Assembly: GCA_032249095.1 (NCBI GenBank)
Contig: JAVVGN010000110.1
Span: 1-5,577, forward strand
Source: Candidatus Caldarchaeales archaeon
GTDB lineage: Archaea; Thermoproteota; Nitrososphaeria_A; Caldarchaeales; Calditenuaceae
Length of the DNA: 5,577 bases
Direction: 5' to 3'
Position 1 is the stretch's first letter. Every line of letters begins with the position of its first letter. This document shows, one piece after another, positions 815 through 5,577 of the stretch. The notes under the pieces are model-generated. The model saw only the letters and a program-made list of their open reading frames with translations. It did no database searches and had not been told where the DNA came from. The position numbers and the translations under genes are program-made.

Positions 815-2011
815 ATGAAGGTAGCTCTCGCGTACAGCGGCGGGCTGGACACAACAGTCTCGATACCATGGCTGAAGGAGAAGTATGGCGCCGAGGTGAT
901 CACGGTTACAGTGGATGTAGGCCAAGATGAGGATTTTTCCGCGATCGAGGAGAGGGCCTTGTCGGCTGGAGCCTCGAAACACTATTTCATAGACGCGAGG
1001 CGTGAATTCGTAGAGAACTACATAAAGCCCTGTATAATGGCTAACGGACTCTACGAGGATGAATACCCACTTGGGACCGCATTAGCGAGGCCGCTCATAG
1101 CAACTAAGACTGTCGAGGTTGCGTTGAAGGAGGGGTGCGACGCGGTGGCGCACGGATGCACAGGTAAGGGAAACGACCAGCTGAGATTTGACACAACCAT
1201 CTCGGTCCTCTCACCCGAGCTTAGAATCATAGCGCCGATAAGGGAGTGGGACCTCTCGAGAGACCAAGAGATCGAGTACGCGAAAAAGAAAAACCTCAAG
1301 CTGGACTTTAGGATAAGCAGGTTCAGCATCGACGAGAACCTATGGAGCAGGTCGATCGAGGCCGCCGAACTAGAGGACCCATGGGTCAGACCGCCCCCCG
1401 AGGCTTTCAAGTACGTTGCCGACCCGGTCAGCGCCCCTGATAGGCCGGAACTCGTCGAGATAGAGTTCGAGCGGGGCGTGCCAGTTGCCCTGAACGGCGT
1501 CGAGAAGAGCCTCATAGAAATAGTTAGGGAGCTGAACGTGTTGGGAGGTAGGGCAGGCTTCGGCATAATCGACCACATAGAGGACAGGGCCGTCGGAATC
1601 AAGTCGAGGGAGATTTACGAGGCCCCCGCCGCCTTGCTACTGATTAGGGCGCATAAAGACCTTGAGAAACTGACTCTCAACGGGAAAACGATCGGTTTTA
1701 AGCGGCTAGTCGACCAGAGGTGGTCGGAGCTAGTATACTACGGCTTTTGGTACGACCCGCTCATGGAGGCCCTAAACTCTTTTATCGAGACAACGCAGAG
1801 AAACGTTACTGGGAAAGTTAGAGTCGAGCTTTACAAGGGGTCAGCGAGAATAGTTGGCCGCACCTCTGAAAATCCGCTCTATTCGCGCGAACTCGCAACA
1901 TATGCGGCTGGCAGCGCCTTCCAGCAGAAGGCTGGTGAAGGATTCAGCAAGATCTGGGGCCTCGAGACCGTGATAAGCGCATCGGCGTGGAGGAGGCTGA
2001 GAGGGCGCTAG
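815..2011 (+). CDS. argG: Argininosuccinate synthase
   Basis: 398 aa. The N-terminal MKVALAYSGGLDTT is the SGGxDT ATP-pyrophosphatase motif. It also has the GCTGKGNDQLRF and IKSREIYEAPAA blocks typical of ArgG. The length is canonical. Confidence 0.95.
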   Translation: MKVALAYSGGLDTTVSIPWLKEKYGAEVITVTVDVGQDEDFSAIEERALSAGASKHYFIDARREFVENYIKPCIMANGLYEDEYPLGTALARPLIATKTVEVALKEGCDAVAHGCTGKGNDQLRFDTTISVLSPELRIIAPIREWDLSRDQEIEYAKKKNLKLDFRISRFSIDENLWSRSIEAAELEDPWVRPPPEAFKYVADPVSAPDRPELVEIEFERGVPVALNGVEKSLIEIVRELNVLGGRAGFGIIDHIEDRAVGIKSREIYEAPAALLLIRAHKDLEKLTLNGKTIGFKRLVDQRWSELVYYGFWYDPLMEALNSFIETTQRNVTGKVRVELYKGSARIVGRTSENPLYSRELATYAAGSAFQQKAGEGFSKIWGLETVISASAWRRLRGR

Positions 2012-2988
2012 ACGGACGTGACCTCCCTTCTCAGCCCCTCGTGGGGGATCTTGACGACCTCCACTTTGAACTTGCCAGAAATTGCTTTAGCGACCTCGTG
2101 CGACTTGTTTTCAGCGGCTATAGCTACCACGTATCCGCCGCCACCAGCGCCCGTGAGCTTCGCTCCTAGCGCGCCGCTCTTGACCGCCGTCTCTACCGCG
2201 AGGTCCAGCTGCTTGTTCGAGACGCCGATAACTCGCAGGAGATCGTGAGAAAGTAGGAAGAGGGTTCCAACCCTCTCAAGCCTCCTATTAGTTAATGCAA
2301 GCTCAAGCTCATTACAAATCTCGTCGTTCACGGCAAGGAGTCTGTCAAAGATGCCGACGAACTGGTCCCTCAACGCGGCTACCCGCCTAACCACCTCGCC
2401 GGTCCGCCTCCCCCTCTCCGTGCTTATCAGAAGCAACTCCATGCTACCCTCAATCGGGATCTGGCGCGGTTTCTCGCCACGGATAAAGCTGATGACCCCA
2501 CCGTTTAGGGAAGCCGCGATGTCTATCCCGGAGGCCCTGAAGTGGATCGAGGACTCAGACACCGAGGCTAGCTCCATAACCTCGGACTGGGAGGGCTCGA
2601 TATTCAGGGCCGCCAAGCATGCCGACGCCGCCGCAAGCGAGACAGACGCGGAGGACCCAAGCCCCATGCCTCTCGGAATCTCTGACTTAATCCGGAGCGA
2701 GAACCCCTTGGCACCATATCTCTCCACAACTTGGTCAAGCATGGCCTTCAAAGGTCTGAGCCTACGTGGTGCCGACTTATCGGAACTTTTGACCACCTTG
2801 TCGCCCTTCCATACACATGAATAGTTGGTGTCAAGAGAATCGATAGAGATCAGTCCATCACCCCGCACAATAGCCGTCGCATAAGCACGCTTCGGAATAG
2901 CACAGGCAATCGCGCGCCCCCTATAGACCACAAAATGCTCTCCACACAGGATAACTTTAGCGGGTGACGAGTAAGTCGCCGCCTCCAT
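2008..2988 (-). CDS. mvk: Mevalonate kinase (GHMP kinase family)
   Basis: 326 aa. Motif 1 is AKVILCGEHFVVYRG, GHMP motif 2 is PRGMGLGSSASVSLAAA, and motif 3 is KLTGAGGGGYVVAI. The GEHxVV motif favours mevalonate kinase over other GHMP kinases. Confidence 0.85.
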   Translation of the reverse strand: MEAATYSSPAKVILCGEHFVVYRGRAIACAIPKRAYATAIVRGDGLISIDSLDTNYSCVWKGDKVVKSSDKSAPRRLRPLKAMLDQVVERYGAKGFSLRIKSEIPRGMGLGSSASVSLAAASACLAALNIEPSQSEVMELASVSESSIHFRASGIDIAASLNGGVISFIRGEKPRQIPIEGSMELLLISTERGRRTGEVVRRVAALRDQFVGIFDRLLAVNDEICNELELALTNRRLERVGTLFLLSHDLLRVIGVSNKQLDLAVETAVKSGALGAKLTGAGGGGYVVAIAAENKSHEVAKAISGKFKVEVVKIPHEGLRREVTSV

Positions 2989-3270: not shown

Positions 3271-3621
3271 AAGAGCGAACCCATTATTTGGACACTACCC
3301 GACCTAAGACTACTCACATATATCATGGATCTTCTTAGGAGACTGGGTATAGAGTCAACGGGGCCAATGCTCAAAGCCCGACGAGGAACTATATTCTATG
3401 ATCCTAGGATGGGGAAGAAATACACGCATAACAAGGATGTATATGTGATCTATATTCGAGTCAGCAGTAACATAAACTTCTACAGATACGTGGGCTTCAC
3501 CATTACTAGGAAGCAGGCGTGGCTAGAGAACTACGTCAAGAGAAACACTATTACACCTGCCCCTCCCCCAACCATTTCCCATCCAGCATACCTAAACACG
3601 ACTCTAACTAACAATAACTAA
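3271..3621 (+). pseudogene. 5'-truncated remnant (C-terminal ~110 codons) of the HTH-LAGLIDADG family
   Basis: The translation ...LRLLTYIMDLLRRLGIESTGP...YIRVSSNINFYRYVGFTITRKQAWLENYVKRNTITPAPPPTIS... aligns colinearly, without gaps, with residues ~198-291 of the 4445-5458 protein, at roughly 60% identity by eye. The HTH and both LAGLIDADG motifs are missing. The frame is open from 3205, but the first ATG is at 3325. A TAA TAG double stop lies at 3619-3624, flush against tRNA-Gly. Confidence 0.7.
3556..3580 (+). repeat. Conserved C-rich core of the LAGLIDADG-gene 3' module (copy 2): CCTGCCCCTCCCCCAACCATTTCCC
   Basis: 24/25 nt identical to the reverse complement of 4585-4609, while the surrounding coding DNA is only about 70% identical by eye. 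Confidence 0.75.
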
Positions 3622-3624
3622 TAG

Positions 3625-4444: not shown

Positions 4445-4452
4445 CTAAATTA
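4445..4452 (+). promoter_or_regulatory. Candidate TATA box (CTAAATTA) for tRNA-Thr
   Basis: It is centred about 28 nt upstream of the mature tRNA 5' end at 4477. It is the only A/T block in the 78-nt spacer. Confidence 0.35.
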
Positions 4453-5458
4453 GTCCTTGACGAGTTTTTGACGGGTGCCTCGGTAGCTCAGACTGGTAGA
4501 GCACCGGCTTGGTAAGCCGGGGGTCGCGGGTTCGAGTCCCGCCCGAGGCTATATTAGTTATTATTTTGAGTATGTTGAGTGTGGGGGAAATGGTTGGGGG
4601 AGGGGTAGGTTTTCTAGTGGTTCTCCTGATGTACTCTTCTAGGCGTTGTTGTTTTCTCTTTATTGTGAATCCGATGTATTTGTAGAAGTTTGCGTTACTA
4701 CTGGCTCGAATATAGGTATAGTAGCAATCCTTTTTAGCCATGTATTGCTTCCCCGTCCTCGGATCATTGATTACAGTTCCCCGTTGGAAAGCAATTCTTG
4801 GCCCAGTTAACTCTATGCCGAGTCTCCTAAGAAGCTCATTGATATATATGAGTCGCTTAATGTTGGTGTTGGTGATATATATGTAACCATGTTTGTCGAC
4901 GCTTCCTTCCGAGTCCGCGAAGCCCCTGATGAAAGCCGCCACGCACCTCTCACAGTGCTCTATGTATCTCCTCAGCCTGTCGAGGTCAACTGGCTTTCTT
5001 AGGAGTTCGTATAGCGTCTGTGACCTAACTTCCACGACATACCTACCCGAAGATTTCACGTATCTTGGCCTTATTGGTCTCCTGCCCAGAACCTTTGCAA
5101 GACATCTGCCAAACTCCTCTACAAACTCCCTATCTTTAGCCTCAAGACATATTATGACGTCGTTGTAGCCTTTGCGGACGCGGCTTTTCTTCCCAACGCA
5201 TCCATCGCCTAGGACCACGCCGATCACGTACGCCAACTCCTCTGAAGGCTTCAACAATTCTAGTGAAGGTATCCGTCTACCATTGTATGGGCTATGCATC
5301 CCACGTAGCCACTCACTTATCGACGACTTGGAGATCCTGACTCCGTATCTTCGATAGATCTCCCCGATGATCCCTCTATATGTCAGACCGCGTCTCCGAA
5401 GAACAACGACATCATTGTACAGCTTTATTCTAAGCTCTCGTGGCAGGCATCTCCTCAC
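4445..5458 (-). CDS. HTH domain + two-motif LAGLIDADG homing endonuclease-like protein (full-length family member)
   Basis: Motif 1 is LAYVIGVVLGDGCV (D85). Motif 2 is VAAFIRGFADSEGSV (E184), about 99 residues later, giving the D/E pair and spacing seen in monomeric archaeal enzymes such as I-DmoI. The N-terminal ~70 aa look like a helix-turn-helix (GLTYRGIIGEIYRRYGVRISKSSISEWLRG). The start is GTG at 5458, preceded by GGAGGTG (5465-5471) with 6-nt spacing. About 303 codons lie outside the tRNA. The last 34 codons (4445-4550) are antisense to tRNA-Thr and are probably not a genuine part of the ancestral protein. Confidence 0.85.
   Translation of the reverse strand: MRRCLPRELRIKLYNDVVVLRRRGLTYRGIIGEIYRRYGVRISKSSISEWLRGMHSPYNGRRIPSLELLKPSEELAYVIGVVLGDGCVGKKSRVRKGYNDVIICLEAKDREFVEEFGRCLAKVLGRRPIRPRYVKSSGRYVVEVRSQTLYELLRKPVDLDRLRRYIEHCERCVAAFIRGFADSEGSVDKHGYIYITNTNIKRLIYINELLRRLGIELTGPRIAFQRGTVINDPRTGKQYMAKKDCYYTYIRASSNANFYKYIGFTIKRKQQRLEEYIRRTTRKPTPPPTISPTLNILKIITNIASGGTRTRDPRLTKPVLYQSELPRHPSKTRQGLI
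4477..4550 (+). tRNA. tRNA-Thr (anticodon GGT)
   Basis: Cloverleaf: GCCTCGG TA GCTC AGACTGGTA GAGC A CCGGC TTGGTAA GCCGG GGGTC GCGGG TTCGAGT CCCGC CCGAGGC T. All stems are Watson-Crick, no CCA is encoded, and there is no intron. Confidence 0.9.
4554..4567 (+). terminator. T-rich tract (TTAGTTATTATTTT) directly downstream of tRNA-Thr, a likely oligo-T termination signal
   Basis: Archaeal RNA polymerase terminates at oligo-T. The TTAGTTA heptamer recurs 3 nt after the other two tRNAs, at 104-110 and 3615-3621 on their strands. It doubles as the stop-codon region of the convergent LAGLIDADG genes. Confidence 0.35.
4585..4609 (-). repeat. Conserved C-rich core of the LAGLIDADG-gene 3' module (copy 3): CCTACCCCTCCCCCAACCATTTCCC on the minus strand
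   Basis: The plus strand reads GGGAAATGGTTGGGGGAGGGGTAGG. This aligns with 45-71 and 3556-3580. Confidence 0.75.
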
Positions 5459-5461
5459 TTA

Positions 5462-5577
5462 CTACACCTCCTCGTTCTGTGTCTTTATCTCGTATGGCCT
5501 CGCCACTATGTGGAACCTCTCTACCTGCTCCCTCTCTAGGACTGTCGAGTTGAGTGGTGGTAGGTGGTAGATTCTCG
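5462..5577 (-). CDS. C-terminal end of an unidentified upstream gene (window-truncated)
   Basis: The minus-strand frame is open from the window edge and reads RIYHLPPLNSTVLEREQVERFHIVARPYEIKTQNEEV* with TAG at 5462-5464. The composition is protein-like but I recognise no family. It is too short to appear in the ORF track. Confidence 0.35.
   Translation of the reverse strand, partial: RIYHLPPLNSTVLEREQVERFHIVARPYEIKTQNEEV

Follow-up and report, generated by a model that had tools for sequence, protein, structure and literature searches.

A family of free-standing LAGLIDADG nuclease genes docked on the 3' ends of archaeal tRNA genes

In several archaeal phyla, genes for a LAGLIDADG nuclease lie directly behind transfer RNA (tRNA) genes, on the opposite strand and with the two 3' ends facing each other. 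We describe this family from a stretch of 5,577 nucleotides (nt) of a Candidatus Caldarchaeales archaeon (contig JAVVGN010000110.1 of assembly GCA_032249095.1; the whole stretch is called the window below), in which three tRNA genes of different identity are each met by a family copy. The association extends to other genomes, where it is far beyond chance, and related genomes hold the same tRNA genes in an unoccupied state. We consider it probable that the nuclease gene is the core of a small selfish element, that is, a free-standing homing endonuclease gene that inserts at the 3' ends of tRNA genes.

Results

Nuclease genes end on tRNA genes across archaea

We scanned one genome per species and obtained 79 loci, with copies located by tblastn and tRNAs by ARAGORN with introns allowed. 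The census was taken over the 75 copies that have at least 30% identity, an intact C-terminus and enough flanking DNA. An antisense, convergent tRNA gene is present at 54 of these complete copies in other genomes, covering 23 anticodons and several phyla, and the median distance from the end of the conserved domain (residue 283) to the 3' end of the tRNA is 64.5 nt (interquartile range 51-82). Four further copies face only a T arm. Among other long open reading frames (ORFs) in the same loci, which served as control, a convergent tRNA stands at the end of 2 of 593. A first reading of the window (hereafter the original prediction) had proposed that the family is enriched on the opposite strand at tRNA 3' ends, and the census bears this out. 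The docked genes can even run into their tRNA: 18 of the 54 docked ORFs reach a stop codon only within the antisense tRNA, and the C-terminal tails of several database homologues are translated antisense tRNA (e.g., ...GFEPT... or ...AGLEPAT...).

A HMMER search of 1.84 billion representatives returned 186 clusters (50% identity) at E <= 1e-30. The neighbour-joining tree displays two regimes. Some clades are bound to one tRNA across distant taxa: one occupies the initiator tRNA-Met in Thermococcales (including Thermococcus), Archaeoglobaceae, Methanocaldococcus and two uncultured archaea, and another tRNA-Cys. The initiator clade includes MJ0398 of Methanocaldococcus jannaschii, the stop codon of which lies 47 nt from the 3' end of the initiator tRNA-Met. 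Caldarchaeales paralogues, on the other hand, group by genome irrespective of the tRNA that they occupy. Nine DPANN homologues (25-29% identity) are not located at tRNAs; at the DPANN and Aenigmatarchaeota loci (L075-L085), an extra C-terminal helix-turn-helix-like extension replaces the proline-rich tail found in the window protein.

Three copies in one window

Three tRNA genes were called in the window by both ARAGORN and Rfam: tRNA-Met(CAT) on the minus strand at 114/117-190 (gene body 117-190, discriminator 117, elongator-type acceptor stem), tRNA-Gly(TCC) on the minus strand at 3624/3625-3699, and tRNA-Thr(GGT) on the plus strand at 4477-4550. Taken together, tRNA calls, ORFs and tblastn confirm that the 3' end of one and the same gene family meets all three on the opposite strand, as had been claimed.

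Copy 1 (plus strand) is cut by the window edge and contributes only its last 36 codons (1-113); its stop codon TAA at 108-110 is part of a TAACTAA at 104-110, which is followed by AAT. It is entire in contig L002 (3583-4545), where its reading frame is open and the start codon is missing because of a 17-nt deletion. Copy 2 (plus strand, 3283-3621) is a 5'-truncated remnant, detected by tblastn at 3283-3579 and as an ORF at 3325-3621, and corresponds to residues ~193-291 of copy 3, i.e., to the last ~100 codons. It has its C-rich core at 3556-3580, TAACTAA at both 3605-3611 and 3615-3621, and its stop codon TAA at 3619-3621; the DNA upstream of it abounds in stop codons. Two of the three window copies (1 and 2) are thus defective, and copy 3 (minus strand, 4553-5458), with 302 conserved residues, is the sole intact one. 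The formal ORF of copy 3 spans 4445-5458, because an 11-nt deletion in its tail has put TAACTAA out of frame, so that the ORF extends by 34 codons and its read-through tail overlaps the whole of tRNA-Thr(GGT) in antisense. Copies 2 and 3 are 58% identical in amino acids and 73.6% in nucleotides, close to the ~60% and 70% estimated beforehand, copies 1 and 3 are 70% and 75% identical, and copies 1 and 2 share 82% of their nucleotides.

When the three junctions are aligned, they run in the same order: a C-rich core of the form CCT(A/G)CCCCTCCCCC(A/C)A(A/T)CCATTTCC, a variable tail, TAACTAA, 3 nt, and the end of the tRNA. The TAACTAA of copy 3 is the complement of 4554-4560. Read on the tRNA strand, its junction (4551-4610) comprises ATA, TTAGTTA (4554-4560), a T-rich run and, at 4583-4609, the G-rich strand opposite the C-rich core. 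This interval is the element end abutting the discriminator of tRNA-Thr, and it probably supplies the T-rich terminator of this tRNA.

The original prediction had described this architecture as shared by the three junctions. It holds at all three window copies and does not hold beyond them as a general feature, both of its motifs being lineage-specific. TAACTAA followed by 3 nt is confined to the window species and its closest relatives, and the C-rich core occurs only in Caldarchaeales members, with soil Nitrososphaerota and euryarchaeal members lacking it. We rejected TAACTAA as a shared double stop, since it functions as a stop in copies 1 and 2 only and is read through as K-I-I-T-N/K in copy 3 and in close relatives (P0007, P0008 and P0026). 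A role of the C-rich core as a signal at the DNA level was likewise rejected, since its frame is the same in most members, where it codes for a proline-rich tail predicted to be disordered; the shifted frame of the core in copy 1 fits a dead copy. One claim had to be given up altogether. The CCA at 114-116, taken to be encoded by the tRNA-Met gene, is missing from the orthologous genes of three relatives, in which the bases after the discriminator are CGC (L088), TCT (L089) and CAT (L090). It is therefore not an ancestral encoded CCA, and is either part of the inserted DNA or fortuitous.

Empty sites and the insertion point

For comparison of the loci we used these same three relatives (L088, L089 and L090), the ArgG proteins of which are 76-80% identical. 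In L089, tRNA-Thr(GGT), tRNA-Gly(TCC) and tRNA-Met(CAT) lie within 1.5 kb beside SCP2-argG, with no family member among them; L089 represents all three window sites in their empty form. L088 has a degenerate copy at tRNA-Gly only, its tRNA-Met site being empty, and L090 has no copy near tRNA-Met. The tRNA-Met gene and ~100 nt of its upstream promoter region are common to the window and the three relatives. In the four-way alignment, homology stops exactly at the discriminator, and the tail of the window element starts there. A second case concerns the initiator tRNA-Met, at which M. jannaschii (L092) and L074 are occupied and L138 is empty; L138 and M. jannaschii are 77% identical in DNA over the tRNA and the neighbouring PGM gene. 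An insertion sequence (IS)-type gene lies on the far side in L138, so that the 5' boundary of the element cannot be fixed there. Among initiator-tRNA loci from metagenomes with enough flank, 1 of 52 (L126) is occupied. Presence/absence polymorphism at orthologous tRNA genes, as mobility of the family had been taken to imply, is thereby found: the sites for Thr, Gly and Met are empty in L089 (the last also in L088 and L090), and the initiator site is empty in L138.

Copies within one genome tell the same about the insertion point. In the metagenome-assembled genome (MAG) BF2_bins_8, paralogues that occupy different tRNAs share 82-93% of their DNA sequence, and this similarity ends at the last base of the tRNA. 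Copy number reaches at least nine in one MAG and at least four on a single 1.55-Mb contig. Many family copies lie at contig ends, as repeats do, and many in other genomes are 5'-truncated or are recovered as multiple high-scoring segment pairs. Comparison of the occupied tRNAs of the window with those of L089 gave no consistent substitutions that might confer immunity; the tRNA-Gly(TCC) of the window is identical in sequence to the unoccupied tRNA-Gly of L089.

The predicted nuclease

Pfam assigns two stretches of the protein to LAGLIDADG_3 (E = 6e-15); residues 32-54 match a winged-helix model below threshold. When a profile of 26 members was searched against the PDB, it matched I-Tsp061I (8e-9), I-DmoI and PI-PfuI. 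The AlphaFold2 model (predicted local distance difference test score 83.6) of the copy 3 protein comprises a helix-turn-helix (HTH)-like three-helix module at residues 7-51, two LAGLIDADG domains at 73-166 and 170-281, each with an alpha-beta-beta-alpha-beta-beta-alpha fold, and a disordered, proline-rich tail from ~285. Foldseek retrieves I-DmoI as the best structural match (template modelling score 0.70-0.75 normalised to the target, E ~3e-9), and WhiA is also among the matches. The initial call of an HTH plus a double LAGLIDADG protein has thus stood up, the fold being confirmed by profile and structure searches and the N-terminal three-helix module being predicted.

The catalytic acids D85 (in G84-D85-G86) and E184 (in D182-S183-E184-G185) are invariant in the 26 members and align with the motifs of I-DmoI. 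The ratio of nonsynonymous to synonymous substitution rates (dN/dS) between family copies is 0.05-0.38 (10 pairs), which indicates purifying selection. Judged from sequence and model, the protein looks like an apparently working nuclease, unlike a degenerate DNA-binding relic such as WhiA. By the same measure it is predicted to be a monomeric LAGLIDADG enzyme of the I-DmoI type, from which it departs only in lacking the usual, although non-obligatory, intron or intein context: the ORF is intergenic, lies outside the tRNA and has a promoter-like block of its own. The window protein belongs to the uncharacterised MJ0398 family.

The inserted unit

The inserted unit exceeds the nuclease ORF and includes a promoter block and, in the lineage of the window, a second ORF, p163. 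Copies 1 and 3 of the window genome share ~50-66 nt directly upstream of the start codon and have a TATA-like block, GGGGCCACTACTCTTTATATG, in common. Farther upstream, they share a 102-nt block (L002 3396-3497 and 10702-10802) that is 88-90% identical. The 102-nt repeat sits inside a predicted ORF, p156, and also occurs in another species far from family copies (L086 3585-3666).

The end of the window (5459-5577, minus strand) holds the 5' part of the inserted unit with the 3' end of p163, and the TATA-like promoter block lies beyond it. p163 encodes 163 amino acids on the minus strand and overlaps the window at 5462-5577, 3 nt upstream of copy 3; it is complete in L002 (9897-10388), where it is placed between the promoter and the nuclease gene of copy 3. 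A p163 that is 84-100% identical at the protein level is found in another species (L086 9870-10346), in an unrelated neighbourhood, ahead of a family copy docked on tRNA-Pro(TGG), and copy 1 of one strain retains a piece of p163. Its presence with the nuclease gene at tRNA-Thr here and at tRNA-Pro elsewhere suggests that p163 travels with this gene. Neither p163 nor p156 has a match in Pfam or PHROG.

In other genomes, the similarity between paralogues extends 320-440 nt upstream and includes a conserved GC-rich block. At least six Caldarchaeales loci (L010 500-603, L030 7169-7271, L015 7642-7756, L020 1339-1476, L022 9524-9653 and L023 9526-9662) have this block immediately before the nuclease ORF, with a length of 105-140 nt and nested inverted repeats; it is missing from the window copies. 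Its inverted repeats are CCCCGAYAGGAGG...CCTCCTGTCGGGG and GCCGGAG...CTCTCCGGCGG, and the block also contains the motif GGCCTCCCGGGAAGGCCATG, which appears as 'RPRPPGKAM' in the translation of several ORFs from databases. The block has no match in Rfam, and RNAalifold found almost no covariation in it because the sequence is nearly invariant.

No integrase or transposase was found in the gene tables or in the scanned ORFs of inserted segments. A DDE_Tnp_1 IS element (L086 5739-7403) interrupts the family copy on tRNA-Arg(CCG), and the copy in the sister contig L087 is uninterrupted.

Displaced tRNA fragments and synteny breaks

At some loci, a piece of a second tRNA lies on the far side of the nuclease gene. 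In L088, the nuclease gene comes after an intact tRNA-Gly (8020-8095), and ~300 nt past the 5' end of that gene there is a tRNA-Gly 3' fragment (9283-9318), after which come the old spacer and tRNA-Met. The fragment is of the tRNA-Gly type found in L089 and the window, whereas the intact tRNA has a different T stem. The whole insertion measures only ~1.2 kb and holds the nuclease gene alone. Further displaced fragments were located at L022 8769-8810, L026 9596-9630 and L063 9624-9655. Each fragment covers the tRNA from approximately the variable loop up to the discriminator, is located upstream of the copy and is oriented like the docked tRNA. At three of these loci, the intact tRNA and the fragment differ in the T stem, the intact tRNA having GTGGG/CCCAC. 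The same search (up to 4 kb, at most 7 mismatches in 28 nt) found no displaced fragment at the three window copies. A lone orphan tRNA-Gly fragment is present in L090 (3780-3826), and the copies in L030, L037, L042 and L047 are docked on tRNA 3' fragments instead of whole genes. We also considered a larger integrated element around the L063 copies and rejected it, since the intervening genes (DUF4013, zinc-ribbon, PNP, HEPN/MNT, GcvH and protoglobin) are ordinary and partly shared with L090.

Gene order around the copies is disturbed as well. Relative to L088-L090, the order in the window is scrambled: the three tRNAs are spread out, each accompanied by a copy of its own, and the tRNA-Met unit is inverted with respect to SCP2. 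Contigs L001 and L002, which are 99.6% identical downstream, diverge ~360 nt upstream of copy 1 (L002 3275, L001 8003), with an MFS (major facilitator superfamily) transporter beyond this point in one and DinB plus a ubiquitin-like cluster in the other. This divergence is a strain-level rearrangement that ends at the element. Fragments and synteny breaks are circumstantial evidence that fits repeated double-strand breaks and repair at tRNA ends.

Surroundings of the three tRNA genes

The genes between the tRNAs are argG, a GHMP/mevalonate kinase gene, SCP2 and an EamA-type gene. argG (815-2011, plus strand) and the mevalonate-kinase-like gene (2008-2988, minus strand) are convergent, with a 4-nt overlap of their stop codons at 2008-2011. 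A scan of the window with Rfam recovered only the tRNAs among known RNAs. The window DNA is also present on at least 17 metagenome contigs. Less than 10 kb from it lies a eukaryote-like cluster of ubiquitin, E2, E1 and JAB deubiquitinase genes (L001 2653-4594), with equivalents in L088-L090; such clusters characterise Caldiarchaeum-like archaea (the former Aigarchaeota, now Caldarchaeales within Nitrososphaerota), among which the cluster places the organism.

Discussion

How might a nuclease gene come to lie exactly behind so many different tRNA genes? We favour the selfish element introduced above, and the following scenario would account for its placement. The element would consist of a promoter or 5' block, sometimes a small ORF (p163 in the present case), the nuclease gene and a short A/T-rich tail, and would sit right after the last base of the tRNA, transcribed toward it. 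Conceivably, the nuclease recognises an unoccupied tRNA gene by its conserved 3' part (T arm and acceptor strand) and by the adjacent flank, and cuts there, with the extra HTH possibly reading the conserved T arm. Repair from an occupied copy would then install the element exactly at the tRNA 3' end, the tRNA body serving as one homology arm. Such an insertion would destroy the target and leave the tRNA intact, endowed with a T-rich trailer in place of its own terminator. On the far side, where the flanks are non-homologous, a displaced 3' fragment of the resident tRNA might be left over. After fixation, copies would decay by start-codon loss, frameshifts and 5' truncations; with deletions barred from the essential tRNA, this process would yield the one intact and two defective copies of the window. 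Of these steps, we infer the site of cleavage, the route of repair and the role of the HTH.

Several observations weigh against this scenario. It leaves unexplained how an element with one-sided homology could be transferred to a tRNA of another identity. We saw no shared motif in the downstream flanks of empty tRNAs, so that a classical 22-bp LAGLIDADG site across the junction would need a high one-sided tolerance. A distinguishing sequence in the docked tRNAs was sought and rejected, as the T-arm and acceptor profiles of 53 docked and 35 undocked tRNAs are nearly equal. Displaced fragments occur in only 4 of ~50 loci, and 17 of the 75 census copies have no tRNA by call, several of them visibly abutting tRNA 3' fragments (L030 and L047). 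The initiator clade, finally, is single-copy with a dN/dS of 0.05, and a host function would also fit it.

A more far-reaching proposal, which we advance only tentatively, holds that the LAGLIDADG enzyme itself carries out integration for a novel class of archaeal mobile elements, with a specificity for tRNA 3' ends in general. Taken as a whole, this proposal would have the universally conserved T arm read through the HTH and the DNA cut at or near the gene end, with neither integrase nor transposase involved. A replacement tRNA 3' segment and terminator would be copied in, and the element might in this way hop between tRNA identities, reshuffle tRNA neighbourhoods and occasionally replace resident tRNA alleles. 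T stems of the GTGGG/CCCAC type, which the window tRNAs do not have, are found in 27 of 53 docked and 8 of 35 undocked tRNAs. This weak excess hints that a 3' segment of the tRNA is transferred along with the element, but it is confounded by the relatedness of the genomes.

Alternatively, the nuclease gene might be mere cargo of tRNA-targeting integrative elements, their tyrosine integrase acting in trans or having been lost, and would simply happen to be the gene nearest to attL, the left attachment site. Archaeal proviruses and plasmids integrate into the 3' part of tRNA genes in this manner. The four loci L088, L022, L026 and L063, in which a complete tRNA stands at one end of the segment and a like-oriented tRNA 3' fragment at the opposite end, resemble what such elements leave behind, and the T-stem differences in three of them look as if the incoming DNA had brought a tRNA 3' part. 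However, most loci have no fragment, and the ~1.2-kb segment in L088 contains nothing but the nuclease gene. None of the gene tables around copies lists an integrase Pfam family, and paralogues within a genome diverge exactly at the end of the tRNA and not inside it. Distance and orientation of the nuclease gene relative to the tRNA are fixed across phyla, unlike those of cargo. When the family profile was scanned against 2.9 million viral contigs, no relative appeared, on which ground we also rejected a viral origin of the family. We therefore regard the cargo explanation as improbable.

It is slightly less likely still that tRNA genes are a passive safe haven, with insertion occurring nearly anywhere and survival only beside tRNAs, where insertions are tolerated and deletions counter-selected. 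In every copy the tRNA side is intact and the 5' side is often truncated, and selection on the tRNA evidently shapes which copies survive. Retention alone, however, would not produce base-precise junctions of a single orientation at 23 different tRNAs. Junction and discriminator are 0-3 nt apart, both in the window and among paralogues from other genomes, and the orientation is always convergent, with docking as frequent as the census shows (54 of 75 against 2 of 593 control ORFs).

The least likely of the alternatives is a domesticated, vertically inherited WhiA-like LAGLIDADG DNA-binding protein with a cellular role tied to the neighbouring tRNA gene, e.g., in regulating or terminating its transcription: the structural match to WhiA, the HTH module and the single-copy, strongly constrained initiator clade of Thermococcales, Methanocaldococcus and Archaeoglobaceae lend it some appeal, and for that clade only, but both catalytic acids, which WhiA has lost, are invariant, the helical module is N-terminal and not C-terminal, Caldarchaeales have undergone a multicopy expansion with many pseudogenes, and occurrence is patchy among close relatives, down to the single occupied locus among the 52 initiator loci.

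If the selfish element proposed here is real, it would represent a new lifestyle for LAGLIDADG enzymes, outside the target gene and with base precision on many tRNAs per genome, in a lineage that persists from Caldarchaeales to Methanocaldococcus. It would also be a third route by which mobile DNA exploits tRNA genes, independent of integrase and of reverse transcriptase. Contig breaks, tRNA gene fragments and local scrambling of synteny in MAGs of Nitrososphaerota would find an explanation. MJ0398 offers testable material in a model organism, and the family as a whole provides candidate thermostable nucleases, with tRNA gene ends as possible targets. The findings also carry a warning for annotation, because the 'tails' of ORFs can be antisense tRNA. 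A full-text literature search, with most subscription journals outside its coverage, returned no description of the tRNA association or of MJ0398.

How does the family compare with known systems? Homing endonucleases are textbook parasites of introns and inteins, and free-standing ones are known mainly from phages. The best matches, I-DmoI, I-Tsp061I and PI-PfuI, are archaeal and thermophilic, share the fold and have the same catalytic Asp/Glu at the ends of the two LAGLIDADG helices. Their genes reside within rRNA introns or inteins, and the targets are alleles free of the intron or intein, whereas the tRNA-docked genes are free-standing, carry an extra N-terminal module, lie outside the target gene and are multicopy in some genomes. 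Within the family, MJ0398 and the proteins of Thermococcus, Pyrococcus and Palaeococcus annotated as 'LAGLIDADG family homing endonuclease' are 32-37% identical to the window protein and have the same architecture. These members, docked tail-to-tail on the initiator tRNA-Met, differ from it in being single-copy, bound to one tRNA and devoid of a proline-rich tail, and their annotation is by similarity only.

In terms of function, the closest systems are the free-standing homing endonucleases of phages: T4 SegB in a tRNA cluster, SegF and SegG, and cyanophage F-CphI beside psbA. SegB acts in the tRNA gene region, and such enzymes are expected to spread by cleavage of the nuclease-less allele and co-conversion. 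They share with the present family an intergenic position beside a conserved gene and presence/absence between relatives. However, they are of the GIY-YIG or HNH type and occupy one locus per genome, with no base-precise junction at a gene end, whereas the tRNA-docked enzymes are LAGLIDADG proteins of archaeal chromosomes, always convergent with the tRNA and found at up to 9 or more tRNAs per genome.

As landing sites, tRNA genes are likewise used by archaeal integrase-type elements and by the eukaryotic retrotransposons Ty3 and TRE (the latter of Dictyostelium), in company with occasional tRNA 3' fragments and rearrangements. In contrast to these, the family described here comes with no integrase, reverse transcriptase or transposase, its only enzyme being the LAGLIDADG nuclease. 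The point of insertion sets it apart as well: integrases act inside the tRNA gene and Ty3 and TRE at a distance upstream of it, whereas the nuclease genes are inserted at its exact 3' end.

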